From: Candidatus Aenigmatarchaeota archaeon
Lineage (GTDB): Archaea; Aenigmatarchaeota; Aenigmatarchaeia; QMZS01
Reading direction: 5' to 3'
DNA: 47,955 nucleotides
Assembly (NCBI GenBank): GCA_030600555.1
Contig: JAUVLW010000004.1
Span: 1 to 47,955 of the forward strand
Shown: positions 10,603 through 28,188 of the stretch, piece by piece
How the letters are laid out: each line of letters opens with the position of its first letter
Numbering within the stretch: position 1 is the stretch's first letter
The notes under the pieces: model-generated
Told to the model about the DNA's origin: nothing
Seen by the model: the letters and a program-made list of their open reading frames with translations, nothing else
Database searches by the model: none
Position numbers and translations under genes: made by a program

Positions 10603-10711
10603 AAACCTTTTTATTTGTTAAGTTAAATAATGGGCATGTAGCTCAGTAGAATCGCAAACACTAAAAATTGCGGTTTTGAGCAATTGGATAGAGCACCGCC
10701 CTTCTAAGGAG

Positions 10712-10811
10712 AACCCTTTTCAACGTAATTGTTGAAAAGGATGTTCTACGGAAAGTAGAACATATGTTTTTTCTTTGAAAAAACAAGTTCTGCACCCCAA
10801 AAAAGGTAATT
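10712..10811 (+). repeat. tRNA intron family A, copy 1 (in the Arg 37/38 intron)
   Basis: 10734-10803 matches the reverse complement of 27887-27956 at 69/70 nt; multi-hairpin. Confidence 0.92.
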
Positions 10812-10873
10812 GGTCAACAATTAATCAATTATTAAAGTGGGTGAAGAAGTTAGGCGGGGGTCGCAGGTTCAAA

Positions 10874-10934
10874 TGAGGATTTTCTTTTTAAAAAAGAAAA
10901 TACCTCAACCCAAAAGAAAACACAAATTGGAAAA
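10874..10934 (+). repeat. tRNA intron family B, copy 1 (Arg T-loop intron)
   Basis: TGAGG.TTTTCTTT...AAAGAAA..ACCTCAA..CAAAAGAAA...AAATT is shared with the Glu 37/38 intron. Confidence 0.8.
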
Positions 10935-10976
10935 TCCTGTCATGCCCATATTTATATTTATTAAGTGATCATAATT

Positions 10977-12842
10977 TCATTTATGTTTTTTCCCATGATG
11001 TTCTCTTTTGTGTTTATTTCGTTTTTCTCTTTCCTTTGGAGGTATGGTTCTTTCATCAACTTCCCCAATATTTTCCAGGAATCCAGCATTATCCGCGTTG
11101 TATTGAGCAAAATAAGTTCCTATCTGTTTATAATCGCTAATTTGGTTTTTTGCCAGCCAGTTGAGAAATTTTATTTTATTTAAAATATCCGCATCCATAT
11201 CAACTTCGTTTATTCCTGTTCGGTCAACAATATTTTTTAGCACCACAGATTTATCCGCGATTATAAATTCATCGGATTTTGGGTCCCATTTCGCAAAGTT
11301 ATTTACTAAAGGTCTTTTTGTTTTGTAATCCATTCCAGCAATTTCTTCTATAGCAGTTATTCTTCTGAATATTCTATCTCCTATTTTAACTCTCGAAATA
11401 AAAACAATAACATCCAGAATTTCAAGCAAAGTTGAAGGAAGGTTTATTGGTTCTGTTATTAAACGGTCAATCAAAGTATCAATACTCTCGGCGTGGATGG
11501 TTGCGAGTCCGGGGTGTCCCGTAGCCATTGCCTGAAATAAAACAAAAGCTTCTTTACCCCTAACCTCACCAACAATAATCCGGTCAGGTCTTTGCCTTAA
11601 ACTTTCTCTTAGCAAATCAAATAAAGTTACTGAACCCCGACCTCCTGTGGTAAGCGCTGACCTCGCAACTTCTGGTATCCAGTTTGGATGAGGCAATTGA
11701 AGCTCACCAGTATCTTCAATACTCACAATCTTTTCTTCTGGTTTCGCAAGCATTGAAATTGAGTTTAAAAAAGAAGTTTTACCTGAACCCGTCCCTCCTG
11801 AAATTAAGATAGAACGACCATTTTCCATTGCAAACCAAAGATAGGCCATTATATTAATGTCGCATGTGTGAGACAATACTTGTTTTGATGGGGTGAAAGG
11901 TTCTTTGCTAAATCTACGAATTGTAAAGTTTGAACCTCTTCTTGCAATATCTGTTGCTAAAGTTGCCTGGACCCTGCTGTTATCAGGCAGGATACCATCA
12001 AGCAAAGGGTGAGCAACAGAAAGATCCCTTCCGCATCTCTGAGCCAGTTTCATCACAAAAGAATCCAGTTTTTCAGCATTATCAAAAGCAACATTTGTTT
12101 TTATCGAACCAAATCTTGAATCCCTATGCACGATGTAAAACGGAATATTTGTTCCATCGCATGAAATATCTTCTATATTCTCATCCTGCAATAAAGGTTC
12201 CACCATATCAAAACCAAGGAAATCCCTGTAAACATAATACCTGAAAATTTTTATCATTGATTCTGGAAGATCTAATTTGAAATAATCAATAGCATCATCA
12301 ATTTTTTTAAAGATGTAATTTCTTGCCTCAAACTTTTTTATTGCCGCAAAATCAATATCAATTTTTTCCCTGATGTAATCTTTCAGAACATTCAAAACCT
12401 GCTTATCATATTCGCTTATTTCCGGCTCCACAATTTGATAGATTAGTTCATTACCTGCGTCATTCCAATGTATATGAGTATAAGCGTATATTTCTTCCCC
12501 TCTTTTTGGTTGACTTGGAATTAAAGGATATTTTATTGATATTGTGCGCAAGTCCTGTTTTTTGAAAGATTTTTCGATTGGTTTTATATTTGATTCTACA
12601 TATGGAAAAGGCAAACCTTCCCATTTAACGGCTTTCTTTTTATCTTTGTTCATCCATTCAAAATTTGGAGGAAATTGCCATTGAGGTGGTTTATCTTTTT
12701 TTGGTTCTTCCTTAGGTCTTTCTAATTTAGGCGGTATGTAATTTATTACAATAGGCCTCTTTTTTAAAACATAGTTTATACTTTTCTTTAGTTTTATTGG
12801 TTTCCTTTTCTTAACCCTCTTTCTAATAATTACTTTTACCAT
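10977..12842 (-). CDS. Type II/IV secretion (T4P/archaellum-family) ATPase
   Basis: IEDISCDG, GSNFTIRRF, Walker A GGTGSGKT, SIEDT.EL, LRQRPDRIIVGEVRG, TGH...TIHA. Confidence 0.93.
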   Translation of the reverse strand: MVKVIIRKRVKKRKPIKLKKSINYVLKKRPIVINYIPPKLERPKEEPKKDKPPQWQFPPNFEWMNKDKKKAVKWEGLPFPYVESNIKPIEKSFKKQDLRTISIKYPLIPSQPKRGEEIYAYTHIHWNDAGNELIYQIVEPEISEYDKQVLNVLKDYIREKIDIDFAAIKKFEARNYIFKKIDDAIDYFKLDLPESMIKIFRYYVYRDFLGFDMVEPLLQDENIEDISCDGTNIPFYIVHRDSRFGSIKTNVAFDNAEKLDSFVMKLAQRCGRDLSVAHPLLDGILPDNSRVQATLATDIARRGSNFTIRRFSKEPFTPSKQVLSHTCDINIMAYLWFAMENGRSILISGGTGSGKTSFLNSISMLAKPEEKIVSIEDTGELQLPHPNWIPEVARSALTTGGRGSVTLFDLLRESLRQRPDRIIVGEVRGKEAFVLFQAMATGHPGLATIHAESIDTLIDRLITEPINLPSTLLEILDVIVFISRVKIGDRIFRRITAIEEIAGMDYKTKRPLVNNFAKWDPKSDEFIIADKSVVLKNIVDRTGINEVDMDADILNKIKFLNWLAKNQISDYKQIGTYFAQYNADNAGFLENIGEVDERTIPPKEREKRNKHKREHHGKKHK

Positions 12843-13258
12843 TATCTTGAAATTATTACGCTGTCTTCAGTTGAATGCAATACAAAATATCCCGCTGAAC
12901 TTGTTGCCAACCCATTTGTTAAGATGTCTTCGAAGTTGGATAATTTTCTGGTTATCCCTCCATCGCTTCTAAAGTTGCGAACATTAATATAATTCTTGCT
13001 TAATGAAATTGTGTATCTTGCATCAGATAATTTTTTAGGGATTTCCACGGTGATGCTGCAATCTGCTGATTTTCCGCATAGATACGCTTTTGTTGTTGCC
13101 ATTGAAACAAGGTTGGACATTATATAATATTGTTCTGTCTGAGCCTGTTTTTGAAGTGAAGTGACAAAAGAAGCGACGGTTCCCGCAAGAGATAAGGTTA
13201 TTAATGCACCTATGCCAAATAACAATAATTCATTAATCGCCTTATGCTGTCCCTTCAT
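12842..13258 (-). CDS. Class III signal-peptide pilin-like protein
   Basis: MKG/QHKAINELLLFGIG hydrophobic helix; stop overlaps the ATPase start. Confidence 0.75.
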   Translation of the reverse strand: MKGQHKAINELLLFGIGALITLSLAGTVASFVTSLQKQAQTEQYYIMSNLVSMATTKAYLCGKSADCSITVEIPKKLSDARYTISLSKNYINVRNFRSDGGITRKLSNFEDILTNGLATSSAGYFVLHSTEDSVIISR

Positions 13259-13272
13259 AAAAATATAGATTT

Positions 13273-13875
13273 TTATCTAATATCTACTAATACAAGTGTT
13301 TTTGTGAAAGGTCCTCTTTCCTCACCCATTTTGCTTATCACTATCTTTGAACCTTCAGAGCCTATAATGGTTGCGTTGTATGGGGTTATAATATCCAAAA
13401 GGTAAACACTCCCGTCGCTTTTCGTGAGATTCCTGTAGATTATTTTGTAAGTTGTGAGAGAAGCGTAATTATCGAGCATGTGAACATAAACTCCGGTAAC
13501 AGAATAAGAATCTTTTCCAAACTCGCCTCCTGTTGTGTTGCAACTTTTGCTGAAACATATAAATTGTCCTCCTCCGTAGATAGCAGTTTCTGTTTGCACC
13601 GAGAATTCTATTGTGTTGTTTTTTGCGTTTATCTTTATTTCCCCGGGAATATTAAAAACAAGTTCTTCTATTGAACCTAATTTTGCGACCTCATCAACTT
13701 TTTTATCAAGTTTGAAAAGGAAATTTTCCGCTTTGTACAAAGTTGGTTTATCCATATTTCTCTGAATCATTGGCATCCCCCAGGTGTAAGCAACTGAAGT
13801 AACCACAAGTAGAACACCTATAAGCATAATTGAACTTATTACCACAGAAGCTCCTTTAAATTTTCTGGAATTCAT
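13273..13875 (-). CDS. Archaeal pilin-like protein
   Basis: MNSRKFKG/ASVVISSIMLIGV...WGMPMI. The start is placed at ATG 13875 because the ORF-track extension runs into tRNA-Gly. Confidence 0.8.
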   Translation of the reverse strand: MNSRKFKGASVVISSIMLIGVLLVVTSVAYTWGMPMIQRNMDKPTLYKAENFLFKLDKKVDEVAKLGSIEELVFNIPGEIKINAKNNTIEFSVQTETAIYGGGQFICFSKSCNTTGGEFGKDSYSVTGVYVHMLDNYASLTTYKIIYRNLTKSDGSVYLLDIITPYNATIIGSEGSKIVISKMGEERGPFTKTLVLVDIR

Positions 13876-13899
13876 AATTATCACTATAAATAGATTAAA

Positions 13900-14046
13900 T
13901 GCGGCCGCCGGGATTTGATTACGGCATTGTTTAAACAAAGTCAAACGAATGTACCCGGGTTACTGGCTGTTACCGAAACTTGACCTGGTTTATAATATCA
14001 AAATTTTCGTGGGAAGCCAGGATCCTAACCACTAGACTACAGCCGC
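13900..14046 (-). tRNA. tRNA-Gly(CCC) with two introns (37/38: 13969-14009; 54/55: 13919-13952)
   Basis: Exons join to GCGGCTG-TA-GTCT-AGTGGTTA-GGAT-C-CTGGC-TTCCCAA-GCCAG-TAAC-CCGGG-TTCAAAT-CCCGG-CGGCCGC-A. Both BHBs have one mismatch in the central helix (TTCC/GGTA, CCGG/CCGT), with intron helices GAAA/TTTC and CATT/AATG. Confidence 0.9.
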
Positions 14047-14089
14047 ATAAAAATAGTATTTAGATAAATTATTTAGGGATATTTATAAT

Positions 14090-14611
14090 ATGAAACTGGA
14101 AAAAATTAATATAATTTTAGTAATTATTTTAACTATTTTCTTAATTATCGGTATTCCTCCAATAATAGATTGGGATTTATCTGAGATTTTACCTTCTGAA
14201 GAAAAGATTCATATTATAATTGAACCTGATTATATTAGTGAGGGTCAGTATCCTGAAGGAAGATCAATTAAAGTGATAATCCCAAATATTGCTAAAAATA
14301 ATATTACTTATTTAAAATTATATAAAAATAATGTAAAAGTTGCTCGTCTAAACAAAAATAAAGATACTAAAGTATCTGAACTTTATTGGGATGGCGGTTC
14401 TAGTTATGACAAACCATTAGTGATAGATTATGAGATATCTGGTTTCTCCAAAGATAATTTAACTGCTTCTGGAGAACTACAAGGATGCCCAAATTGTTTT
14501 GAAGGAGAATATTCACCATATCAATTTACTTTTATAATTGATTACAAAATAGGGGGCAGTGATATAATAATTACCACCAAACCTATAAAAGTGAAACTTC
14601 CAATAATCTAG
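14090..14611 (+). CDS. Hypothetical membrane-anchored/secreted protein
   Basis: N-terminal hydrophobic helix; beta-rich body with CPNC. Confidence 0.65.
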   Translation: MKLEKINIILVIILTIFLIIGIPPIIDWDLSEILPSEEKIHIIIEPDYISEGQYPEGRSIKVIIPNIAKNNITYLKLYKNNVKVARLNKNKDTKVSELYWDGGSSYDKPLVIDYEISGFSKDNLTASGELQGCPNCFEGEYSPYQFTFIIDYKIGGSDIIITTKPIKVKLPII

Positions 14612-14650
14612 TTAGTAACCGAGTATTTAATCAAAAAATGAAAGAATTTT

Positions 14651-15661
14651 ATGATGGAGATTGATGGAAATTACCTTGAGGGGGGAGGTCAGATACTAAG
14701 GACTTCTGTGGCTTTATCCTGTTTAACCGGGAAGCCAGTTCATATATTCAATATAAGGGCTGGGAGACCCACACCAGGGCTAAAAGCTCAGCATCTGGCG
14801 GCGATATCCGCTGTTGCTGAACTGTGCAATGCAAAGCTTGAAGGGGGCGAAATTGGCTCAGAAGAGATTTCTTTTCATCCTGGGGAAATTAACAAGGAAA
14901 AACTGACAATTAATATTTCAACCGCGGGTTCTGTGGGTCTGGTTTTGCAGGCTATTTTTCCCGCATGCGTTAATTTAATTAAACCTCTTAAAATTGAGAT
15001 TATTGGGGGAGGGACTTTTGGGAAATGGGCTCCTTCAGTTGTTTATCTCCAGAAAGTATTTTTGCCGATTCTGGAAAGATTTGGTTTTAAAGCGGATGTG
15101 AAAATTCTCAAACACGGGTTTTATCCGAGAGGCGGAGCTAAAGTTGTTGCGGATATTTTCCCATCAAAATTGAAAGGTTTTTCTATCGATGGCGGAGTTG
15201 ATAAAATTGAAGGAATCTCAATTGTTTCTGAAAAACTGAAAAACGCAAAAGTTGCGGAAAGGCAGGTTGATGGGGCAAAGAAAATTCTTGAGAAATTAAA
15301 TCTACCCGTTGAAATAAAAACCGAATATGTTGATTCAACTTCGGTCGGAACAGGAATTGAACTCTGGACAGATAAAACTATTTTGGGGGCGGGAACTCTC
15401 GGAGAAATTAGAAAAAAAGCTGAGAAAGTTGGGAGCGAATGCGCTGAGATCTTGAGTAAGGAAATTAATTCGGGGGCGACAGTTGACAAACATCTTGCAG
15501 ACCAGTTGATTCCTTTTATGGGTCTTGCGGAGGGAAATTCTGGTTGCAAAATTTCTGAACTAACCAACCACACAAAAACCAATATTTGGGTTATAGAGAA
15601 ATTCTTGGATAGAAAGTTTGAGATTAAGACTATGGGGGGTTTGTATGAGGTTTGTGTTTGA
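14651..15661 (+). CDS. rtcA: RNA 3'-terminal phosphate cyclase
   Basis: IDG.YLEGGGQILRT, IRAGRP.PGLKAQH, TAGSVGLVLQ, GFYPRGG, VDKHLADQLIP, T.HTKTN (adenylated His). Confidence 0.96.
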   Translation: MMEIDGNYLEGGGQILRTSVALSCLTGKPVHIFNIRAGRPTPGLKAQHLAAISAVAELCNAKLEGGEIGSEEISFHPGEINKEKLTINISTAGSVGLVLQAIFPACVNLIKPLKIEIIGGGTFGKWAPSVVYLQKVFLPILERFGFKADVKILKHGFYPRGGAKVVADIFPSKLKGFSIDGGVDKIEGISIVSEKLKNAKVAERQVDGAKKILEKLNLPVEIKTEYVDSTSVGTGIELWTDKTILGAGTLGEIRKKAEKVGSECAEILSKEINSGATVDKHLADQLIPFMGLAEGNSGCKISELTNHTKTNIWVIEKFLDRKFEIKTMGGLYEVCV

Positions 15662-15712
15662 ATTGTAATTGTTTCTTCAATTTTTTATTATTCTTTAAGT
15701 CAATAGATAAGT

Positions 15713-16429
15713 ATGAGGAGTAAGGATAAGTTAAATTATCCTCACCAAACCGACTCTGATTTTTTTGGATTTACAAGTGATTGGCATATTGGCAATAAGC
15801 ATGCAAATGAAAATTATATTTTAGATTATCTGGATTTATTAAAAGAACGCGGGGTAAAACAGATATTTCACGGGGGTGATTTGTTTGAAGGTTATAAAAT
15901 ACACCGCCGTCAAACAAATGAACTGCTTCTTGATTGTTTTGGAATGGAAGAACAGATAAAACATTTTAATAATTTAATCCCAAAACAAAAAGATTTAAAT
16001 ATGAAATTAATTTCAGGCAATCATTTGATTAAGAATCATAAAGGCAAGAATGTTGTTGAAAAATTATGCTATGAAAGAAGTGACATAGATTATCTTAGTA
16101 AGTATGATGGTCTTGTTAAACTGAAAGATGGAGTTGCTATGGAAATAATCCATCCGAGCAGAGGGTCTCTGTATAAAGGATTATCTGAATTTAATGAATA
16201 TCTAAATTTATGCCAAACCAACCCGGACATTCTTGGCGTGGGTCATAAACACATATCCAATTGCCATTTATATAATAATGTTGTTTGTTATCATTTGGGA
16301 ACTTTTCTTAGCGAATCAAATAAGAGAAACAACAAATTTTCACCGGATATCGGAGCGTGGATAGTTGAGTTGGATATTGATAATGGGGAGATACTTTCTA
16401 ATAAGAGTGATTGGATTAGTTATGAGTGA
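15713..16429 (+). CDS. Calcineurin-like metallophosphoesterase
   Basis: SDWH, HGGD, SGNH, IIHP and GHKH motifs. Confidence 0.88.
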   Translation: MRSKDKLNYPHQTDSDFFGFTSDWHIGNKHANENYILDYLDLLKERGVKQIFHGGDLFEGYKIHRRQTNELLLDCFGMEEQIKHFNNLIPKQKDLNMKLISGNHLIKNHKGKNVVEKLCYERSDIDYLSKYDGLVKLKDGVAMEIIHPSRGSLYKGLSEFNEYLNLCQTNPDILGVGHKHISNCHLYNNVVCYHLGTFLSESNKRNNKFSPDIGAWIVELDIDNGEILSNKSDWISYE

Positions 16430-16509
16430 ATATTTTTTATCCCTCTCATTATCTCTACAAGGTCTTTTAATTTACTCAATTCCATATCTCTGGCAAAAGA
16501 TTAAATTAT

Positions 16510-17925
16510 TTAATTAACCCCCTCTTCAATAATTGTCTCTTTGGTAACTTCTTTTGTTAGTTTAATATCTTCGGTTAATTGTTTTTGTTTCCAGGTCCCT
16601 TTTGCGAACCAAGCAATTGTTATAACTGCGGCAATAACATTAGCCACTGGAAACGCTATCCAGATACCGAGTTCTGCAAGAACTGTGTGTTTTGATAATA
16701 GATAAGCTAAAGGAAATCTTAGAACCCACAGGGAAACTATGGATAAAACCAAAGGAATCATTGTGTTCCCTGAACCCCTAAAAGCCCCGTTCAAAGACAT
16801 TTGCACTCCAATGAATCCAAAAGTTAAAGCCATTATTTTAATAAACAAAGCGGTTGCTTTAATGGTTTCCAATTCCCCTGGAATAAAGATTGCGGAAATC
16901 TGCTCAGCAAATAGAAAAAATAAAATTCCCACTAGAGTTAAAATAATGAATCCTGTTAAAGAACTTAATTTTGCTATTTTTTCCGCTCTTTCCATTTTCC
17001 CTGCGCCAATGTTCTGACCAACTAAAGTTGAAGTTGCCATAGACAATCCTATTGCAGGAAGAACAATGAAACTTAATATTCTGCCCCCAATACCATAAGC
17101 GGCTAAGGTAAGAGTTCCAAAACCCGCAACTAAAAATGTCATGACAAGTATACCTAACGCTCTTGTTGATTGTTCAATGGAAGCTGGAACTCCCAACTTA
17201 AACATTTTTTTGAGCAAAGGAACATCAGGTTTTAAATCACTTAATCGCAAATGTATTTGATGTTTCCCTCTCAGCAATATTATTATGCCAATTACTGCGG
17301 CTATTCCCTGAGTAATTATTGTGGCAACAGCAGCCCCACCCACGCCAAGAGCTGGAATAAACCAATACCCAAAAATAAATAAAGGGTCAAGAATAAGATT
17401 TAAAAGAACAGTTCCAAAAACAATATACAAAGGGGTTTTAACATCCCCAACACCCCTCATCAATGATTGAAAGACCATGTAGGTAAACATAAAAATCATT
17501 CCAATAAAAGAAATTCTCATATACGAAACTGCTCCTGAAAAAACGCTGGATTCAACTCCCATCAAACTAATAAGTTGAGGAGATAAAAAATAACCTAAAC
17601 CAGAAAGGATGATTGAGACAATAACCATCATCAACAAAGTTTGACACGCAATATGATTTATTGCTTTTTTGTTCTTTTTACCTTTGTATTGAGCAACAAG
17701 AATTGTGCCTGCTATTGATAATCCGCCCCCTAAAGAAATAATCAGAAAAATAAGAGGGAAACTAATGGAAACTGCGGCGATTGCATCTGTGCCAAGCCGC
17801 CCAACCCAAAAAGTATCTATTAATTGATAAGCTGATTGCAATATACTCGCAAAGATAATGGGTACTGATAGAGTTATCAGGGATTTTAAAATAGATCCTT
17901 CAGTCAAGTTATTTCGCTCTCCCAT
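16510..17925 (-). CDS. MATE family efflux transporter
   Basis: NLTEGSILKSL..LSVP, IDTFWVGRLG, RG.GD.KTPL, NLILDPLFI; about 12 TM helices. Confidence 0.95.
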   Translation of the reverse strand: MGERNNLTEGSILKSLITLSVPIIFASILQSAYQLIDTFWVGRLGTDAIAAVSISFPLIFLIISLGGGLSIAGTILVAQYKGKKNKKAINHIACQTLLMMVIVSIILSGLGYFLSPQLISLMGVESSVFSGAVSYMRISFIGMIFMFTYMVFQSLMRGVGDVKTPLYIVFGTVLLNLILDPLFIFGYWFIPALGVGGAAVATIITQGIAAVIGIIILLRGKHQIHLRLSDLKPDVPLLKKMFKLGVPASIEQSTRALGILVMTFLVAGFGTLTLAAYGIGGRILSFIVLPAIGLSMATSTLVGQNIGAGKMERAEKIAKLSSLTGFIILTLVGILFFLFAEQISAIFIPGELETIKATALFIKIMALTFGFIGVQMSLNGAFRGSGNTMIPLVLSIVSLWVLRFPLAYLLSKHTVLAELGIWIAFPVANVIAAVITIAWFAKGTWKQKQLTEDIKLTKEVTKETIIEEGVN

Positions 17926-17964
17926 TTATGTATAATCAATTTAAAATCTTATCAGATTGTTCGC

Positions 17965-19491: not shown

Positions 19492-19497
19492 TTTAAT

Positions 19498-20448: not shown

Positions 20449-20449
20449 T

Positions 20450-21331
20450 TTATCTCACCATCCTCTTTTTCCTTAACGCGAAGAATTTTCTAAGAGGAGC
20501 ATAAAAAGAATCATCAGTATTTAATTGAATAATATCTATCTTTAACTTTTTCATTTTTCTTAATAATTCATTGTTTATTTTACTGGCTTGAGCTTTGTAA
20601 GTATTCCTGAAATTTTCGTCTGCGGTATTCACAAGAACCTGTTCCCCGGTTTCCTCGTCTTCAAGGAAAATATATCCCAAATTAGGAATCTCTTTTTCTA
20701 TTGAATCAGATAATTTCACAAGTATTACATCATGCCTTTTCTTTAGAAATTTTATGGGTTTCTCAAATGACCCGGAAACATAATCGGATATTATAAAAAT
20801 CACGCTTCTCTTTTTTATTATTTTGCTTAGATGGACTAAAGAATTATTTACGTCAGTTTCCCTGTGTTTTGGTTCATAATAAATTAATTCCCTTAGCATT
20901 GCAAGCAAGTGTTTCTTGCCCTTTCTTGGTCTGAAGAATCTCTCGATTCTATCGGTAAATAAACACATACCCACATTATCATGGTTCTTCAACGCTGAAA
21001 ACATCAATGCCGCGGAGATTTCAAACCCAATTTCTTTCTTTGCTTTTCTGTGACCGAAATTACCGCTTGCCGAGATGTCTGAGACAATATAAATATCAAG
21101 GTCTCTCTCCTCTATAAACTCTTTTACAAAAGGCGAATTATATCTTGCTGTAACTTTCCAGTCAATTGTCCGGATATCATCGCCCGGGATATATTCCCTT
21201 ACTTCGGAAAATTCAATTCCTCTTCCCTTAAAAACTGAATGATAGTTTCCGCACATGAGACCCTCAACCAATTTATTTGTTTTTATTTCGAGTTTTTTTA
21301 CCTTTCCAATTATCTCTTTTACTTTAGGCAT
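20450..21331 (-). CDS. DUF58 family protein
   Basis: G.YHS.FKGRG.EF.EVREY.PGDD.R.IDW.VTAR. Confidence 0.93.
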   Translation of the reverse strand: MPKVKEIIGKVKKLEIKTNKLVEGLMCGNYHSVFKGRGIEFSEVREYIPGDDIRTIDWKVTARYNSPFVKEFIEERDLDIYIVSDISASGNFGHRKAKKEIGFEISAALMFSALKNHDNVGMCLFTDRIERFFRPRKGKKHLLAMLRELIYYEPKHRETDVNNSLVHLSKIIKKRSVIFIISDYVSGSFEKPIKFLKKRHDVILVKLSDSIEKEIPNLGYIFLEDEETGEQVLVNTADENFRNTYKAQASKINNELLRKMKKLKIDIIQLNTDDSFYAPLRKFFALRKKRMVR

Positions 21332-21336
21332 TTTAT

Positions 21337-22323
21337 CTAAGGGGTTTCTATTTTTGAAAGAATATCATCGATTATTTTATCTGCCATTATATCTTCTGCC
21401 TCTGCTTCGTAGGTTAATATTATTCTGTGCCTTAAAACATCGTGAGCTATTTCTTTTATATCTTCTGGGATTACATAACCGCGACCGTTTAATAAAGCAT
21501 GAGCTTTTCCCGCTAAAATGAGCCATATTGAGGCTCTTGGAGAAGCCCCATAATCAATCAGTTCTCTTATCTTCAAGCCGTAATCTTCAGGATGTCTTGT
21601 TGCGTCAACAATGCATGCAACATATTCTTCAATTTTCTCATCAACATAAATTTTCCTGTTGAATTCCTGAATCTTGATTAGTTCTTTTGAGTTCATGATG
21701 GGTTTTGTTTTGATTTCAATTCCCTGCGTATTTCTTTGGATAATAATTTTTTCTTCATCTTTCTTTGGGTATTCGATTATTAACTTAAATGTAAATCTAT
21801 CAACCTGAGCTTCAGGAAGTTTGTAAGTTCCTTCGGTTTCAATTGGATTCTGTGTTGCCAAAACAAGGAATGGTTTATCAAGTTTAAAAGTGTTTCCCTG
21901 AATGCTTACCTGTTTTTCCTGCATTGCCTCAAGCAAAGCTGACTGTACTTTTGGAGGAGCTCTGTTAATTTCATCCGCGAGAATAAAGTTGCTGAATATT
22001 GGTCCTTTTTGCGTGTAGAAATTTCCTTTTTTATTGTCATAAATCTGGGTTCCTGTTATGTCCGCGGGGAGCAAATCCGGGGTGAATTGTATCCTGCAAA
22101 AGTTTACATTAAAGGTTTCTGACAAAGTATTTACCATCAGAGTTTTTGCCAGTCCGGGAACTCCTTCAAGAAGAACATGACCGTCCGCTATTAAACAAAT
22201 AATAAGTTTATCAAGAATCTCTTCCTGCCCCACAATAACTTTTTTTACTTCGTCCAACACTGAATTTAATTTCTCTGAGTGAATTTGAGCCTGCGAGTTT
22301 AATTTTTTAATTTCCGAGTTCAT
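21337..22323 (-). CDS. moxR: MoxR family AAA+ ATPase
   Basis: GHVLLEGVPGLAKT, RIQFTPDLLPADITG, LADEINRAPPKVQSALLE, ATQNPIE.EGTY.LPEAQ.DRF. Confidence 0.95.
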   Translation of the reverse strand: MNSEIKKLNSQAQIHSEKLNSVLDEVKKVIVGQEEILDKLIICLIADGHVLLEGVPGLAKTLMVNTLSETFNVNFCRIQFTPDLLPADITGTQIYDNKKGNFYTQKGPIFSNFILADEINRAPPKVQSALLEAMQEKQVSIQGNTFKLDKPFLVLATQNPIETEGTYKLPEAQVDRFTFKLIIEYPKKDEEKIIIQRNTQGIEIKTKPIMNSKELIKIQEFNRKIYVDEKIEEYVACIVDATRHPEDYGLKIRELIDYGASPRASIWLILAGKAHALLNGRGYVIPEDIKEIAHDVLRHRIILTYEAEAEDIMADKIIDDILSKIETP

Positions 22324-23369
22324 AATTATAGGTGTAAAATAATAAATCTATTTCTTTAAGAATAAGTTGCCGGATACAAAACCAATTTACTAAAAATAAA
22401 TAATTAATGTTATGTCTATTTCAAATCCATTGATTTCTATAATTATCCCTACTTTGAACGAAGAAAAGTACATTCTTAATCTGCTTGACTCGATAAAAAA
22501 GCAGACATATAATAATTATGAGATTATCGTCTGCGATTCGCATTCAGAGGATAAAACACCTCAAATAGCAAAATCTTTCGGCTCTGAATTTATTTTGGTA
22601 GATAAAAAAGGTCCGGGACCTGCTAGGAATCAGGGCAGGAAAAAAGCAAAAGGAGAATATTTATTGTTTCTTGACGCAGATGTAATAATTCCGGATGAAG
22701 ATTTTCTTGCAAGACTCATAAAGCATGTAGAGAAAGAGAATCTCGGTCTCGCGAATGTTTTCCAGTTTCTTCATCCGTTTAGTGTAAAAGATATTCCCGC
22801 TAACATTGTAGTGAATATTTATTTCAAACTTTCTTCTTATTTTAGTCCAATAGGCGGCGGGTTTTTCATTCTTGTAAAAAAAGATGTTTTTGATGAAGCC
22901 AATGGTTTTGATGAATCAATAAATGTGGGTGAAGATTCAGATTTCATAAGAAGAACCAGCAAAATATCAAATTACAGCATGCTTAATCAATATATATTTT
23001 ATTCAAATAGAAGATTTGAACTGGAAGGGCGACTGAATCTGTATTCAAAATATATTTATCTGCATTTTGATGAACTGCTTGAACCTGTCCTTGGAAAAAT
23101 TGAATTAGACTATAAATTCGGGCATTATAATCTGAGCAATGAAACCAAAAAATACAATTTTCTTATGGATAGAATAAATTTTATATTTCATGAAAATAAA
23201 AATGACCTTCTTGAGCTTTACCGAAAAAATATTATAAAAATCAAAAACAGTCAGGAAATAACTAAAATTAAAAAACTAAGCAAAAAACTAAAGACTAAAA
23301 TAAAGTTTCCTTCATCGCAATAACTTTTTTCACTTCATCTAACACTGAATTTAATTTCTCTGAATAAAT
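22233..23369. repeat. 52-nt imperfect direct repeat (22233-22284 and 23318-23369); the second copy is a moxR 5' remnant
   Basis: 47/52 identical by manual alignment; the copies encode IHSEKLNSVLDEVKKVI and IYSEKLNSVLDEVKKVI. Confidence 0.85.
22412..23323 (+). CDS. Glycosyltransferase family 2
   Basis: ISIIIPTLNEE, ARNQG, LLFLDAD, GFDE...GED.DF. Confidence 0.92.
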   Translation: MSISNPLISIIIPTLNEEKYILNLLDSIKKQTYNNYEIIVCDSHSEDKTPQIAKSFGSEFILVDKKGPGPARNQGRKKAKGEYLLFLDADVIIPDEDFLARLIKHVEKENLGLANVFQFLHPFSVKDIPANIVVNIYFKLSSYFSPIGGGFFILVKKDVFDEANGFDESINVGEDSDFIRRTSKISNYSMLNQYIFYSNRRFELEGRLNLYSKYIYLHFDELLEPVLGKIELDYKFGHYNLSNETKKYNFLMDRINFIFHENKNDLLELYRKNIIKIKNSQEITKIKKLSKKLKTKIKFPSSQ

Positions 23370-24838
23370 CATTCCAAATAATCACTATCAACTCTTCGAC
23401 CTTTAAATGTCTTTTTTCCATGATAGTTTGCATAAACATCCCCGATAATTTCTTTACTCTGACCAATATATTGAATAGGATCTGTAATATTTCTTAAAGT
23501 ATCTTCAGGTAATAGGTCAGTGATTTCTTTATTTTCCAGCACTATTTCAACAAAAGGTCTTTTGGCATCGTATGCTTCGGTGGCAAGTTTCGCAACTAAA
23601 TCATGAGCGTATTCCCTCGTCATTGGATTTTCGGTTCTTGTCCTGTCTGTCAAATAAGTCATGACTTGTTGGGAAGTCGGGACCCCATAAGAACGTTCTA
23701 CTCTTTCCCTGCATCTGTCTTCAACAGCTTCAAGAACATACAATACTTTTGCAAGATTTCTTATAACATAATCTCCCCATTTGAAAGATTCTTCCAGAGT
23801 TATTCTATCTGTTGCCGAAGCTCTTAAGTCCCTTCCATAATCTAAACCGCAGGAACCCAAAGTTGTCTGCATAACCCCTCTCATGTAATTTGTAAAACCT
23901 TCAGTTTGTTCTTCTCTTCTCGGATTTCCGCCTTTGGCATCTTTGTGAGGCATTGCTGAGGAACCTTTATCTCCCATAGGGAATTTAAAAATACCAACAT
24001 CATCGCTTCTTCCCATCCTGATATAATGAGCAAGGTTTCCTAAAGTTTCTGAACTTCTTGCCAAAGCATAAACGCAATCCGCAATAAATTCTCTCCCCGG
24101 TATCTGAGCCGGAGCCATCATATGACCAACTTCACAAAATCCTTCGCAGTAGAGTTTCTCAAGTTTCTTTCCATTCATTTTTAAAGCAGTTGCGGAATGA
24201 TGATTTCCTGTTGCATCGCCCCATTTTCCTTTTATTGAATTGTTGTAAACATAATCCAAAAATTCCAAATCTGATTGGAGCATTTCCCCATAATGCGCAA
24301 AAGGTCTTCCAAGAACTGTTGGCAAAGCATCGTAAAGATGGGTCGTGTCCATGTGGGGAATGTTCATCCAGTCAACGCTTCTTTCAAGAGTAATATCCCT
24401 TAAATTTTCAAGTGAATCCGCAATCACCTCAATTGATTTTTTGAGTTGCATTGCTTTTGCGGTTTCGGTGGTGTCCGCGCTTGTTCTTCCCTTGTTAATA
24501 TGAGCCGCAGCATTATCACTTACCTGTTCGCCCAAAGCAGTATTTATTGCAATAACATCATGTCCTGTGAGTTCTTCAAGTTCTCTTATCCTGTTTGGGT
24601 TTATTTCTTTAAGATTTGCTTTTAATTTAATTTCTCTTGCATCATTTTCAGGGACACTTTCAGGGTATAAATAACTCATAGCGCCAACAGCATCTGATTG
24701 AGCTCTTAAACAATATTCAAAAGTTTTTTCAGGACCCCAGATATTTATCATTTCTTTGGTCCCGTATCTTCCCGCAACAAGAGTGCAGGGATTGGTGTGT
24801 GAATCTATTCCTGTGGGTTTTGGCTTGGTTTTTACCAT
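23369..24838 (-). CDS. purB: Adenylosuccinate lyase (fumarase/ASL superfamily)
   Basis: RYG..EM..IW, E..T.HDV.A, H..A.PT..G, GATG, GSSAMPHK(DAKGG)NP. Start placed at ATG 24838. Confidence 0.85.
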   Translation of the reverse strand: MVKTKPKPTGIDSHTNPCTLVAGRYGTKEMINIWGPEKTFEYCLRAQSDAVGAMSYLYPESVPENDAREIKLKANLKEINPNRIRELEELTGHDVIAINTALGEQVSDNAAAHINKGRTSADTTETAKAMQLKKSIEVIADSLENLRDITLERSVDWMNIPHMDTTHLYDALPTVLGRPFAHYGEMLQSDLEFLDYVYNNSIKGKWGDATGNHHSATALKMNGKKLEKLYCEGFCEVGHMMAPAQIPGREFIADCVYALARSSETLGNLAHYIRMGRSDDVGIFKFPMGDKGSSAMPHKDAKGGNPRREEQTEGFTNYMRGVMQTTLGSCGLDYGRDLRASATDRITLEESFKWGDYVIRNLAKVLYVLEAVEDRCRERVERSYGVPTSQQVMTYLTDRTRTENPMTREYAHDLVAKLATEAYDAKRPFVEIVLENKEITDLLPEDTLRNITDPIQYIGQSKEIIGDVYANYHGKKTFKGRRVDSDYLE

Positions 24839-24877
24839 AAAATAGTTTAAACAGAAATTTAAGTATTGCAATGAAAA

Positions 24878-25606
24878 TTATTCATAAGATAAAGGAACAG
24901 CCCGATTTTTAAATACATACCTGTCATCTATATAACCACTTCCAGAATTACAACGAATCATCCAAGTAAGTGTATGATTTCCTTCAGGATAACTTATTAT
25001 ATTAATCATGTTTGTAAAAGTCTCTTCAAAACCATATGCATTTCCATATGTTTTCATATCCCAAATTAAATTTCCGTCCAAAAATACATTCAAATAAATA
25101 TAATGGTTAGTCCCTCCAGTATATCCTTTTAAATCAGCCTGAAGTTTTATATCTTTTATATTCTTATTCTTGTCTGCCGGGTCGGTTCTATCAATAATGA
25201 AACTATTATTTCCAACGAATACCCATGCACCGCCAGATATAGCATTAATTCTATTGGAATCATAAAATATTTGTTTATCTATATTATCTCTATCAACAAT
25301 ATAAAAATCAGCGCCTCCAAAACCAGATTCATTTATATTTTTGCAATTATTTCCATTTTCATCACAATATTGAGAAGCCATTATTTTATCATTTACATTC
25401 AAATCACCGGGAATATTCCACTGAGGATTTGCTAAGCCTGAATCATTAAAAGTTCCTGGACCAATCATCCCCGGATGCATTCCAGGGTTTGGATAATTTC
25501 CATAAGGTCCTGTTGAATAAGTTGCGAGAATTGCAGAGCCAATGCAAATTATAAAAGTTAATAAGATTCCGAGAGTAAGTTTCTTGTTTTGTTTGGATTC
25601 TATCAT
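24878..25606 (-). CDS. Secreted surface/fibre-like protein
   Basis: Signal peptide; NPGMHP..IGPGTF and GDLNV...YCDENGNNC motifs; beta-rich C-terminal domain. Start placed at 25606. Confidence 0.65.
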   Translation of the reverse strand: MIESKQNKKLTLGILLTFIICIGSAILATYSTGPYGNYPNPGMHPGMIGPGTFNDSGLANPQWNIPGDLNVNDKIMASQYCDENGNNCKNINESGFGGADFYIVDRDNIDKQIFYDSNRINAISGGAWVFVGNNSFIIDRTDPADKNKNIKDIKLQADLKGYTGGTNHYIYLNVFLDGNLIWDMKTYGNAYGFEETFTNMINIISYPEGNHTLTWMIRCNSGSGYIDDRYVFKNRAVPLSYE

Positions 25607-25652
25607 AATATATATATATAAGTAAAATATAACCAAAACCAGTTTAATATAT

Positions 25653-26570
25653 TCAATCCTCCCACTTATGCTCAGGATTTCTTGGGATTATTATCCACGC
25701 AATTATATACATTAAGATTCCAGCACCCCAGGCAAGACTTCCGAGCACCCAGAGGAGTCTGATTAGCACAGGGTCAACATTTAAGTGTTCTGCAATTCCC
25801 CCGCATACTCCCCCTAAAATTCTTTCTTCTCCAGACCTGTAAATTCTTGGGATTTCTTTTTTGGAGGTTTTTGTTTTAGATATCCTTTTTACCATAATCT
25901 TATTCTTTGTGTTTTTTATTGATTCTTTTGAAAGTATCTTGATTAATAAAATAAAATATCCGAACAGGATAACAAACCAGAATATCCAAAAAAGGTTCTT
26001 CTCTGCATAAAAAGCAAGAGTATAGATTGTTGAAATATTTTCATAAATCCCGATGATTCCAATTATTCGCAGAACAACCCAGGCCCCTATTACAAAACCC
26101 AAGGCATTAAGGATTGGGGAAAATAGTAAATAGATTCTTCTGTGATTCCTCGAAAAATATGAAGTGTATGAAAAGAAAATGAATATAAGAAAAAACAAAC
26201 CTAAATTTGCAAGAAAAAATAAATGTATTCCTGAGAGAATATTATTCTTCATATAAAAATTCATAAATCCCAATGTCCAGACACATAAAACAAGGAATAA
26301 TAACCCAAATATTCCTGAGATTAAAGGACCTGCCCACCCAAGAGTTTTATTAAACCAGCATTCTGTTCTTTCGCATTTTCTGTCTGCGTTTTTTTCAAAT
26401 TTTCTTCCAAGTGTATGAATTTCCTTACCAAAGTGTTTTATGTTGCGTTCTAAAGGTTGTGTTTTCTTTTTGGGAATATTATTATTCTTAATGTTTTTTG
26501 TTTTCTTATTTGAGATTTTTTTCTCAGGGGATTTTTTGGTTTTCACATTAACTGATTTTTTCTTAGGCAT
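25653..26570 (-). CDS. Membrane protein with C-terminal PspC domain
   Basis: RIYRSGEERILGGVCGGIAEHLNVDPVLIRLLWV...YIIAWIIIP; four upstream TM helices. Confidence 0.88.
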   Translation of the reverse strand: MPKKKSVNVKTKKSPEKKISNKKTKNIKNNNIPKKKTQPLERNIKHFGKEIHTLGRKFEKNADRKCERTECWFNKTLGWAGPLISGIFGLLFLVLCVWTLGFMNFYMKNNILSGIHLFFLANLGLFFLIFIFFSYTSYFSRNHRRIYLLFSPILNALGFVIGAWVVLRIIGIIGIYENISTIYTLAFYAEKNLFWIFWFVILFGYFILLIKILSKESIKNTKNKIMVKRISKTKTSKKEIPRIYRSGEERILGGVCGGIAEHLNVDPVLIRLLWVLGSLAWGAGILMYIIAWIIIPRNPEHKWED

Positions 26571-26593
26571 AATATATTAAATATATTCGTTTA

Positions 26594-27169
26594 TTATTCT
26601 ATAACCCCTCTATTTTTTAATTCAAAAAAACATTCAGCGCAGGCAGTTGTGTCTATCATGGCATCGTGTCCGTTCAATAATGGTTTGTGGAATAACACGC
26701 TGTGAAGTTCTGATAAATTAGGCCATTTATATTTCCGGTATCTGCAGGGTATTTTGCAATAATCCATTGAAGATTTCATAGTGCAGATTTTAGGGATTTC
26801 CAAAAGATTGGTTGCGATATTGTTTCTCAATAATTCAGCCCCGACAATTTTTTCATCAAAACTAATATTGTGGGCAACCAAAGTTTTTGAGCTATTCAGA
26901 GCTTCTGAAAATTCCAGCAATACTTCTTTTAAATCAGACCCTTCATTAACAGCCATCTCATGAGTTATTCCGTGAATTTTTGAGACTCTTTCAGGTATCA
27001 TAAATCCCTGCGGTTTTATTACGTAAGTCTTTCCCAGCAATTTCTCTCCTGAATTATTATATTGCAACCAGGCAATTTGCACCATTCTTGGCCAGTTATC
27101 CAGTTCTGAAATTGGGGCTTTATAATCTTTTGGCAAGCCCGTGGTCTCTGTATCAAAAAATAAGTACAT
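26594..27169 (-). CDS. DnaQ-like (DEDDh) 3'-5' exonuclease
   Basis: FFDTETTG, IHGIT, VAHN.SFD, HDA..D. Confidence 0.92.
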   Translation of the reverse strand: MYLFFDTETTGLPKDYKAPISELDNWPRMVQIAWLQYNNSGEKLLGKTYVIKPQGFMIPERVSKIHGITHEMAVNEGSDLKEVLLEFSEALNSSKTLVAHNISFDEKIVGAELLRNNIATNLLEIPKICTMKSSMDYCKIPCRYRKYKWPNLSELHSVLFHKPLLNGHDAMIDTTACAECFFELKNRGVIE

Positions 27170-27239
27170 AATCTACCATCAATTATTTTTATTAAGTCAG
27201 GTATTAATTTTTTATTAAACCAATTTTAACAATTATAAA

Positions 27240-27818
27240 TCACCACCGGTTTATCTTAATTATGTTTGTCTCAACCGCTCTTTTGTACAACCCATCAACA
27301 ACTTCTAGATTGTTTGAAAGATGTGATTTTATTTTATCAAGGTCTTTGTTATAGTATAATTTTGCAATATCTTTTCCTTCGATTTCTGTGGTTTCGAGTT
27401 TTAGCAGGGAAGCGTATTCTTTAAGTTTCCCCCGGGTTTTTCCATATCTGTAAGCGTTTATTTTATCTCTCAAATCAATTATTTGTTTCAGGGAAAAAGG
27501 CGATATAATATTTCCATTAATGAAACTTCTTGTTGCGATAAAAGGTATGTCAAAATTTGAAATGTTGAATCCGATTATTGAATTATAGGAATTTCCTTTT
27601 GTAATTAAATTCCATTCAAACCAGAATTTATCAATAATCTCTTTTTCATTTTCCCCGCAGAATATTTTATTTTCCCCCTGACACCGCATCCCAAGAGCGA
27701 TTATTTTCGAGTCAATTGGGTTTAATAATTCCTTTTTTGAATCCTCGTCCAAATTTATATATTTCTCAATTTCGATTGGGACGGTTTCTATTGATACGAT
27801 AATATAAGGGTTTGCCAT
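27240..27818 (-). CDS. PolB-type/RNase H-like exonuclease-fold protein with a degenerate active site
   Basis: VSIET (ExoI, D to S), GFN..NFDIPF (ExoII), H...N in place of Y...D (ExoIII). Confidence 0.75.
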   Translation of the reverse strand: MANPYIIVSIETVPIEIEKYINLDEDSKKELLNPIDSKIIALGMRCQGENKIFCGENEKEIIDKFWFEWNLITKGNSYNSIIGFNISNFDIPFIATRSFINGNIISPFSLKQIIDLRDKINAYRYGKTRGKLKEYASLLKLETTEIEGKDIAKLYYNKDLDKIKSHLSNNLEVVDGLYKRAVETNIIKINRW

Positions 27819-27880
27819 AATTAATTATAAAACTATTTGGGTTATTAATATGCCCCTGCCGGGAATTTCATATACCCCAA

Positions 27881-27978
27881 AATTACTTTTTGGGGTGCAG
27901 AACTTGTTTTTTCAAAGAAAAAACATATGTTTTACTTTCCGTAGAACATCCTTTTCGACAATTGTATCGAAAAGGGTT
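27881..27978 (-). repeat. tRNA intron family A, copy 2 (in the Glu 59/60 intron)
   Basis: Same element as 10712-10811 in the transcript sense. Confidence 0.92.
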
Positions 27979-28001
27979 GCTTTGAACCCGGGTCACCGGC
28001 T

Positions 28002-28071
28002 GTCTCCTTAGGTTATTTTTGAATTTTCCTTTCTTTTGCTTGAGGTGTTTCTTTCGAGAAAGAAAACCTCA
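28002..28071 (-). repeat. tRNA intron family B, copy 2 (Glu anticodon intron)
   Basis: TGAGGTTTTCTTTCTCGAAAGAAACACCTCAAGCAAAAGAAAGGAAAATT. Confidence 0.8.
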
Positions 28072-28188
28072 CGAGAGGCCGGTATCCATGGTCCCTTTAT
28101 TTTATTGAAATTTGTTTCTTTTCTAAAAAGAAAGGGTTTAACCGAGCTAGACTACAGGGGCATAAATGTAAATAAAAATAATCTAATT

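Follow-up and report, generated by a model that had tools for sequence, protein, structure and literature searches.

Modular tRNA introns of the putative bulge-helix-bulge type and their probable transfer between tRNA genes in an Aenigmatarchaeota archaeon

The shared intron of tRNA-Arg(UCU) and tRNA-Glu(CUC)

A stretch of 47,955 nt from a Candidatus Aenigmatarchaeota archaeon (GenBank assembly GCA_030600555.1, contig JAUVLW010000004.1, positions 1 to 47,955; hereafter the window) carries two tRNA genes, tRNA-Arg(UCU) and tRNA-Glu(CUC), each interrupted by an intron of a group that we call family A, and the two introns share a nearly identical core. The bases at 10734-10803 (+) agree with the reverse complement of 27887-27956 in 69 of 70 positions, a match with a chance expectation of ~1e-30. 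We consider it quite probable that both are protein-spliced tRNA introns of the bulge-helix-bulge (BHB) type and that they belong to a modular family without open reading frames (ORFs), of which copies or inner modules have passed from one site to another, as judged from the sequence comparisons given below.

In a wider comparison, 10712-10803 (+) against 27887-27978 (-), 86 of 92 bases are equal; this pair is the top inverted repeat of the window (92 nt, 93%), and blastn aligns 77 nt of the two introns with 97.4% identity. The near-identical tract corresponds to this inner 77-nt part and not to the whole intron; in the 5' hairpin (~22 positions) the copies are unlike at 5 positions, 2 of which form a compensatory pair. 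These recomputed values confirm the near-identical core reported in a preliminary description of the window and support its conclusion that the two introns are of recent common ancestry. The hosts, the intron coordinates and the two insertion sites, 37/38 in tRNA-Arg(UCU) and 59/60 in tRNA-Glu(CUC), were likewise reproduced by a cloverleaf parse (Table 1). Both host genes contain three introns: one of family A, one in the D-loop and one of a second family, B, at the other loop.

The same description regarded the introns as ORF-less, multi-helix elements, of which only the termini are specific to the site, and both statements agree with our analysis. The predicted folds are far more stable than those of shuffled sequences (z = -6.96 and -7.23; 0 of 200 shuffles equally stable) and comprise a closing helix round three hairpins, then a second hairpin domain, and then a free 3' tail. 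The 3' ends, GAAG-TT in tRNA-Arg and TGAA-AT in tRNA-Glu, pair 4/4 with bases of their own host loop, 32-35 (CTTC) and 54-57 (TTCA), respectively. The lowest-energy folds of the two interrupted arms place the 3' cut in a 3-nt bulge, with the host stem on one side and a helix of 4-5 bp (4 bp in the T-arm of tRNA-Glu) on the other. Sites 37/38 and 59/60 have the same geometry, i.e. both follow the sixth base of a 7-nt loop that is closed by a 5-bp stem; they are the same structural site, and therefore only the terminus of the intron has to change between them.

Among four public DNA sequencing runs compared, the short-read contigs of two (X1 and X2) stop at 10788 and 27916, within the tract common to both introns; X1 contains 96% of the sampled words. 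In X2, a joint of low depth links 27905 to 27969 with 16 other letters between; it resembles a short-form copy of the element and may come from another family A locus.

Table 1. Positions, strands and supporting evidence of the features discussed in the window
Feature	Position	Strand	Evidence
tRNA-Arg(UCU) gene, three introns, TTAT-type bases upstream	10632-10947	+	7-bp acceptor and 5-bp T stem by script; cloverleaf parse; ARAGORN tRNA-Arg(tct) after in-silico removal
tRNA-Arg(UCU) D-loop intron, approximate bounds	10647-10680	+	D region of 46 nt vs usual 8-11; also in G005, G006 and G008 orthologues
Family A long-form intron, tRNA-Arg(UCU) 37/38, 145 nt	10707-10851	+	Closing helix, three hairpins, second domain; GAAG+TT end pairs with bases 32-35
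77-nt tract 97.4% identical to 27887-27963 (-)	10727-10803	+	3' arm of hairpin 1, hairpins 2 and 3, conserved 3' core motif
Family B intron, tRNA-Arg(UCU) T-loop 59/60	10874-10934	+	Cloverleaf parse and family profile
tRNA-Glu(CUC) gene, three introns	27852-28161	-	Script search, cloverleaf parse, ARAGORN after removal
Family A long-form intron, tRNA-Glu(CUC) T-loop 59/60, 116 nt	27865-27980	-	TGAA+AT end pairs with T-loop bases 54-57
Family B intron, tRNA-Glu(CUC) 37/38	28002-28071	-	Cloverleaf parse and family profile
tRNA-Glu(CUC) D region with ~50-nt D-loop intron, bounds not fixed	28088-28148	-	Cloverleaf parse; in all five orthologues compared
tRNA-Gly(CCC), third tRNA gene of the window	13901-14046	-	Rfam tRNA match, 34.6 bits; ARAGORN tRNA-Gly(ccc) after removal of both introns
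tRNA-Gly(CCC) intron at 37/38	13969-14009	-	Cloverleaf parse
tRNA-Gly(CCC) T-loop intron at 54/55 (family C)	13919-13952	-	Cloverleaf parse
RNA 3'-terminal phosphate cyclase (RtcA) gene, context	14651-15661	+	Pfam RTC, E = 8.7e-82

Intron families in the genome

The window is contig C32 of a genome (G000) of 815 kb in 34 contigs, with 33% G+C and 82% completeness. An nhmmer search with a profile built from 9 short copies (E <= 0.001) located family A at 16 places in G000, of which 15 are within 14 tRNA genes (13 at 59/60 and 2 at 37/38) and one is intergenic, between two convergent ORFs of contig C3. A further, more distant long-form copy was found at 37/38 of tRNA-Leu(CAA) on contig C30. Family B occupies both kinds of site (37/38 and 59/60) and has two clear intergenic copies. 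Clustering by full-length global identity assigned 9 of 42 T-loop and anticodon-loop introns to cross-gene families at >=80% and 23 of 42 at 70%, compared to 0 and 0-2, respectively, in shuffled controls. Near-identical pairs also occur at unlike places: the 59/60 intron of tRNA-Val(CAC) is matched by the 37/38 intron of tRNA-His(GUG), and the 59/60 intron of tRNA-Val(UAC) by the intergenic copy on C3. Judged by such identities, copying between genes in this genome is plain.

The placement between loop bases 6 and 7 was found in 37 of 37 scored introns. In the canonical register (two bases, then four, counted back from the 3' splice site), all four bases pair with loop bases 54-57 in 21 of the 24 introns at 59/60; for site 37/38, 10 of the 13 introns show such 4/4 pairing with loop bases 32-35. 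Eight shifted registers gave counts of only 0-2. When the terminal four bases ("addresses") of the anticodon-loop introns were compared with the loops of the other such genes, they fitted in 25 of 148 cross pairings.

The ends of the element are strongly conserved. Among 31 short copies, drawn from three genera and at least 10 genomes, the first 10 nt at the 5' side and a 19-nt block at the 3' side are invariant or at least 90% conserved, with free variation in the 15 nt that separate them; in the consensus fold the two blocks pair around a 2x2 internal loop. A double change was detected in 2 of 8 predicted pairs, both in one sequence, the paired parts of the short-form alignment being too invariant for a covariation test of the structure. 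The long form, aligned from 8 copies, shows 73% identity. A purely neutral element would not account for ends that are invariant both within introns and in copies outside them, which points to recognition during copying or to a role as RNA.

Rfam (4227 families) yielded no match besides tRNA, either in the window at the gathering threshold, where nothing but tRNA fragments was reported, or at 16 loci at E <= 1. Self-splicing introns of group I or II were rejected as candidates, given no Rfam match, no reverse transcriptase domain (RVT_1) in the 82%-complete genome and a length of 116-145 nt without an ORF, and so was an intron-borne box C/D RNA, for which no Rfam match was found at E <= 1 on the 16 loci.

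Other introns of the T-arm are placed differently. Members of family C, which start with ACAT or AAAT and end with TAA or CAA, follow the first T-loop base (54/55) in six genes of G000, including tRNA-Gly(CCC) of the window, and tRNA-Ser(GCU) (C26:31693-31975) has an intron at 53/54. A series of several strong hairpins in a row, T-rich/A-rich in the style of the introns, lies outside recognised genes at G000:C9:24850-25000.

tRNA genes of G000

ARAGORN found 0 tRNA genes in the uncut window and, in the uncut genome, 1 without and 2 with its intron option; the Rfam tRNA model gave 8 matches over the cut-off in the genome. The near absence of ARAGORN predictions, at most 2 in 815 kb, is due to the intron load, which hides the tRNA genes. 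We used a finder that starts from the T-arm, seeks a matching T-stem strand at most 450 nt further on and demands a 7-bp acceptor pairing (a first version returned 813 candidates, mostly false, and was then tightened), followed by a rule-based cloverleaf parse. Brute-force intron removal combined with ARAGORN produced many ambiguous calls and was superseded by this parse. The resulting catalogue comprises at least 32 genes with 32 different anticodons (one gene each), 29 of them parsed by script and three (tRNA-Arg(CCU), tRNA-Tyr and tRNA-Ser(GCU)) by eye; the finder may have missed more genes.

The T-arm is interrupted in 31 of the 32 genes (24 at 59/60, 6 at 54/55 and 1 at 53/54), 15 genes have an intron at 37/38 and 16 in the D-loop, which amounts to ~62 introns or 1.9 per gene. 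After in-silico removal of the introns, ARAGORN recognised a full-length tRNA for all 29 script-parsed genes, both window hosts among them; in 14 genes one defined removal was made, while the D-loop introns of the other 15 were cut at many trial positions. The tetranucleotide TTAT or a close variant stands directly 5' of nearly every one of the 32 genes, and no CCA end is encoded. A truncated and mispaired copy of the adjacent tRNA-Val(CAC), likely a pseudogene, was noticed at G000:C22:3703-3797 (-).

Splicing enzymes

A single gene for the splicing endonuclease EndA was identified (C30:30221-31093, L007 928-1800; 290 aa, 90.5 bits), and tblastn revealed no second copy in G000. Residues 117-285 match the subunit of the homotetramer from M. 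jannaschii (1a79), the best solved relative, and a Lys-rich insert is common to this protein and the N. equitans subunit (3iey). We rejected the insert as the cause of the intron load: it is present in 30 of 30 enzymes of this class aligned, whatever the tRNA count of the genome (4-38 hits). In addition, the N-terminus of the G000 enzyme is extended by 113 aa rich in Lys/Arg. In eight genomes, all from the same taxonomic family and with 3-10 Rfam tRNA hits, this extension measures 99-120 aa, and the other 22 genomes have 0-56 aa and 3-38 Rfam tRNA hits; a relation between the extension and tRNA detection is a lead suggested by these sequences, from genomes that are kin. The ligase RtcB is also encoded in G000 (E = 1e-173). 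The EndA gene lies ~580 nt downstream of the three-intron tRNA-Leu(CAA).

Orthologous genes in relatives

The closest relatives of G000, as measured by EndA identity, are G006 and G008 (96%), G001 (94%) and G005 (92%). The tRNA-Arg(UCU) orthologues of G000, G005, G006 and G008 share the upstream gene and the D-loop intron, and the D-loop intron of tRNA-Glu(CUC) is kept in all five genomes compared. The introns at the other two sites vary from genome to genome (Table 2).

Table 2. Introns at two sites of the orthologous tRNA-Arg(UCU) and tRNA-Glu(CUC) genes
Gene	Genome	Site 37/38	T-loop
Arg-UCU	G000	family A long form	family B (59/60)
Arg-UCU	G005	family B-like, ~70 nt	family B (59/60)
Arg-UCU	G006	none	a further family (59/60)
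Arg-UCU	G008	none	family A short form (59/60)
Glu-CUC	G000	family B	family A long form (59/60)
Glu-CUC	G008	family B	family A with different insert
Glu-CUC	G005	family B	short intron at 54/55
Glu-CUC	G001	none	family B
Glu-CUC	G006	none	none

The long-form module of the window pair was also found in G010, in the T-loop of tRNA-Gly(UCC) and in the D-loop of a tRNA-Ser, and at non-tRNA places in G007, G009 and G010. A 14-nt motif from the 3' core (<=1 mismatch) is present in 12 of the 16 further genomes of this taxonomic family, across three genera, with 0 to 16 occurrences per genome within the genus; in 24 genomes of other families it gave single one-mismatch matches in 3 only, and a reversed-pattern control gave 0-1 matches. 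A 20-nt version of the motif, searched over the genomes of 185,579 species, retrieved 27 loci, mostly labelled Aenigmatarchaeota; two of the 27 are bacterial and likely due to chance.

The preliminary description had pictured a mobile module in two copies, at different positions of two tRNAs and freshly spread, and had proposed to look for it in sister genomes. There, presence, absence or family of the intron indeed differ at exactly the two sites in question. Transfer between sites is retained, while the two-copy view has to be given up, with family A at 16 places in one genome and its motif in 12 of 16 others of the family. The difference in position is true for the window pair and does not extend to the family overall, in which 13 of 15 intronic copies are at 59/60. 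Mobility agrees with the turnover in congeners and is restricted by several copies that are vertical (Lys-UUU, initiator Met and Tyr, see below). Finally, fresh spread is not clear-cut for the Glu copy: its 97% tract is an inner module, and gene conversion is as likely as insertion.

Copies outside tRNA loops

In G000, non-tRNA places harbor one copy of family A and two clear copies of family B, plus weaker A- or B-like ones. A sample of 41 elements at 40 loci of five relatives was sorted by eye, using the bases upstream of each: 20 come after the start of a T-loop, one is within a D-loop and one within an anticodon loop, two adjoin the 3' end of a tRNA, and 17 are elsewhere or could not be assigned. 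In G013 (LH_S6 record, L030), several of the copies outside tRNA genes lie within gene cassettes that were duplicated as larger units. A 33.5-kb IMG/VR contig of a tailed virus carries, upstream of a small-terminase gene, a minimal form of family A in which both conserved ends are present (L120 8828-8870, also L119); a T7-type portal and a large terminase are encoded there as well.

Further details were noted at some of these loci. Copies in G013 (L030 724-770 and 1194-1240; G013:C22, L144, L145) precede, at a distance of 6 nt, the start codons of small ORFs on the minus strand, their hairpin loop resembles a TATA box, and the repeated cassette also contains short Hint-like ORF fragments. In G016 the element forms tandem arrays (G016:C31:4400-4780 and G016:C16:8090-8160, L151-L153) with a repeated ~23-nt spacer between the units; the spacers are alike, hence the arrays are not CRISPR-like, and one stretch is masked with N.

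Other features of the window

The RtcA gene (Table 1) lies 600 nt away from the two-intron tRNA-Gly(CCC). An internal duplication with 72-74% identity (30284-30686 and 33632-34034, 3348 nt apart) was found in a 1280-aa ORF at 30272-34114 (-).

Proposed mechanism and its difficulties

We propose the following anatomy for family A. After the 5' splice site, the near-invariant 10-nt segment would pair with part of the near-invariant 19-nt segment and thereby close domain 1, the variable middle of which may form one to three or more hairpins; a second hairpin would follow, and then a single-stranded tail ending in the 4-nt address, which would pair with bases 1-4 of the host loop, and in two further bases left unpaired. 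The address helix and the 5-bp anticodon or T stem would together form a helix-bulge-helix in which the 3' cut falls a single base short of the stem; the cut at the 5' side is predicted after loop base 6. The single alpha-type endonuclease would make both cuts and RtcB would join the exons. As the T-loop starts with TTCR in every tRNA, one YGAA-type address would fit all tRNA genes; the interruption of the T-arm in 31 of 32 genes could be understood because a single address would serve all T-loops, whereas copies in anticodon loops would need a tailored one.

Transfer would be frequent enough for congeners to differ at orthologous genes. For the Arg copy we favour a gain, because site 37/38 is empty in G006 and G008. 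For the Glu copy, exchange of an inner module between resident family A introns by gene conversion is as likely as a new insertion. The favoured route is copying at the level of DNA, by template switching or gene conversion that would be primed by the invariant ends, with selection keeping those insertions that can be spliced. DNA-level copying is preferred because searches for a reverse transcriptase and for transposases were negative: in the 82%-complete genome, RVT_1 and the Y1 transposase domain (Y1_Tnp) had no match and a TnpB-type domain stayed below the cut-off.

Several observations speak against this interpretation or limit it. Excision of the family A introns is a prediction from geometry, and in both window copies the 5' bulge opens into a multi-helix junction with no plain inner helix, which departs from the strict hBHBh' form (a near-canonical inner helix seems possible, by eye, in some other members, such as those of tRNA-Ile(GAU) and tRNA-Tyr). 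Because the 5' cut leads into a helix junction rather than into a plain inner helix, the splice motif of the window introns, as modelled, is a relaxed BHB form. This relaxed motif occurs alongside a sole EndA of the alpha (alpha4-like) kind, and enzymes of the alpha4 type were once thought to be strict. The bounds of the D-loop introns were found via many trial removals, and the recognition of those 15 genes is partly circular. Family A introns are vertical at the same site in tRNA-Lys(UUU) of G000, G005 and G008, in the initiator tRNA-Met of G000 and G008 and in tRNA-Tyr of G000 and G005, therefore a large part of the family is stationary on this time scale. The differences among the congeners could also be losses. 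The genome is only 82% complete, which makes the absences of enzymes provisional. Finally, the invariance of the ends across genera exceeds what a neutral selfish element needs.

Alternative explanations

A bolder version of the above, which we regard as unlikely, is that family A is a gene-less, self-propagating RNA or DNA element with the host tRNA splicing enzymes as its shield and its means of spread. The excised intron with its 4-nt address might be reinserted by the endonuclease and the ligase acting in reverse into any 7-nt loop on a 5-bp stem, or, alternatively, the invariant ends might serve to copy the element at the DNA level. With the T-loop being universal, no tRNA gene would be out of reach, and the element would travel from host to host in viruses. 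If true, this would be the first tractable system for studying how BHB introns arrive.

We find it rather unlikely that the introns are old and fixed and that concerted evolution accounts for everything, i.e. that there was one ancient entry into the T-loop and that the likeness results from gene conversion among the residents. Such conversion would agree with the 97% tract being an inner module bounded by segments conserved throughout the family, with the 3' tail of the Glu-CUC intron being like that of its paralogue Glu-UUC, with the 13 of 15 intronic copies at one site, and with the tRNA-Lys(UUU) introns of three species (G000, G005 and G008), in which the 3' tail is identical or almost so and the apex of hairpin 1 is replaced or enlarged by 44 nt. 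Conversion, however, needs a resident intron, and for this reason the empty sites (Arg-UCU 37/38 in G006 and G008, Glu-CUC T-loop and 37/38 in G006) weigh against conversion as the only process, as do the occurrence of family A, family B or another family at the same site in congeners and the presence of the module in D-loops and intergenic DNA.

The copies outside tRNA genes could also be taken to indicate a small DNA transposon, similar to the miniature inverted-repeat transposable elements (MITEs), which lands anywhere and survives in intergenic DNA and tRNA loops as the only harmless places. Apart from the intergenic copies in G000 and the 17 of 41 sampled elements outside a recognisable tRNA loop (with 2 abutting tRNA 3' ends), the tandem arrays in G016, the copy upstream of the small terminase gene in the tailed-virus contig and the imperfect inverted repeat formed by the ends of the element are in line with this possibility. 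We nonetheless give it a rather low probability: the 82%-complete genome has no Y1 transposase and no TnpB-type domain over the cut-off, no target-site duplication was noted (without systematic examination), several of the non-tRNA copies in G013 are segments of duplicated cassettes and not separate insertions, and the exact placement at loop base 6|7 in 37 of 37 introns requires either a targeting process or selection that is very strong.

Box C/D RNAs in tRNA-Trp introns provide a precedent for useful intron RNA, and the family A intron might similarly be the precursor of an excised, probably circular RNA with a job of its own, such as protein binding or pairing with a target. The invariant 10-nt and 19-nt segments round a variable middle, maintained in intronic and non-intronic copies of at least 10 genomes and three genera, would suit a functional RNA, and so would the strong predicted fold and the closing helix kept by a double compensatory change in one copy. 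We nevertheless consider this explanation quite improbable: none of the 4227 Rfam families other than tRNA matched, no genomic target of the conserved single-stranded stretch was found beyond the copies themselves, a range of 0 to 16 copies among congeners is odd for a needed RNA, and family A is replaced by family B and others at the same sites.

An assembly artefact or dead genes are very improbable: the ends of the X1 and X2 contigs inside the shared tract are as expected at any repeat, while the two copies differ at 6 of 92 positions, have site-matched, unlike ends and unique flanks, and have syntenic orthologues in independent genomes, and the hosts are the sole genes for their anticodons in a genome where 31 of 32 tRNA genes are T-arm-interrupted and cannot all be dead.

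Relation to known systems

Transposition of tRNA introns has been described for the Thermoproteales, with a mechanism called unknown and thought to act at the DNA level in a review (PMC4090602). The accessible text of a preprint gives, by its own method, cross-gene families at >=80% identity for 28.3% of the introns in Thermoproteales and 1.5% in Asgard archaea (10.64898/2026.10.13.758758, section 2.5). G000 resembles the Thermoproteales in having near-identical introns at different positions of different tRNAs within one genome, states that differ between close relatives at orthologous genes (by gain or by loss), multi-intron genes, and a cross-gene share of the same order (9 of 42 at 80% vs 28.3%, by different methods). 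It differs in its lineage (DPANN, with relatives labelled Aenigmatarchaeota, and not Crenarchaeota), in its enzyme (one alpha-type EndA with the Lys-rich insert and the 113-aa Lys-rich N-terminal extension, instead of an (alpha-beta)2 enzyme), in the near saturation of the T-arm (31 of 32 genes), in the long, modular introns with ends invariant across genera, and in the additional copies that lie between genes or on a virus contig.

Multi-intron tRNA genes together with an epsilon2 endonuclease are reported for ARMAN-2 (Micrarchaeota) in the available part of PMC3239211, and that of PMC5829648 links an insert near the C-terminus of the DPANN alpha-type EndA (L3 loop, alpha4 enzymes) to a greater extent of tRNA gene disruption and remarks that the tRNA sets of DPANN are incomplete. 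As far as these texts go, the systems share with G000 the small DPANN genomes and the non-canonical and multiple tRNA introns. They differ from it in the three-unit enzyme of ARMAN-2, which has no counterpart here, and in that the EndA insert, shared by all 30 of the aligned enzymes, is not enough to account for the load; neither paper, in its accessible portions, describes families of introns or their turnover. The available part of the Asgard preprint likewise reports about two intervening sequences per gene, introns missed by standard finders, sites with splice motifs and repeated gains; there, however, almost no copying between tRNA genes was seen (1.5% at 80%) and the route of arrival was left open, whereas here copying is plain from the sequences. 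The bacterial palindromic repeats of the repetitive extragenic palindromic (REP) and MITE type are also short, ORF-less, hairpin-forming and dispersed, with conserved ends and variable interiors; unlike them, most copies of the present element are inside tRNA loops at a splice-competent site, and the 82%-complete genome revealed no cognate transposase. We found no paper on tRNA introns of Aenigmatarchaeota.

Significance

Standard finders report almost no tRNAs in these genomes, and tRNA counts consequently underrate their completeness. An alpha-type endonuclease coexists here with dozens of putative relaxed-motif introns. The arrival of archaeal tRNA introns is an open question: the mechanism is called unknown in PMC4090602, and the accessible part of the 2026 Asgard preprint gives no route. 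The lineage described here offers very young events, namely 97% identical tracts and filled vs empty sites among genomes with 92-96% identical EndA, and a defined cassette with invariant ends, non-tRNA copies and one copy in a virus, which together may serve as material for working out that route.

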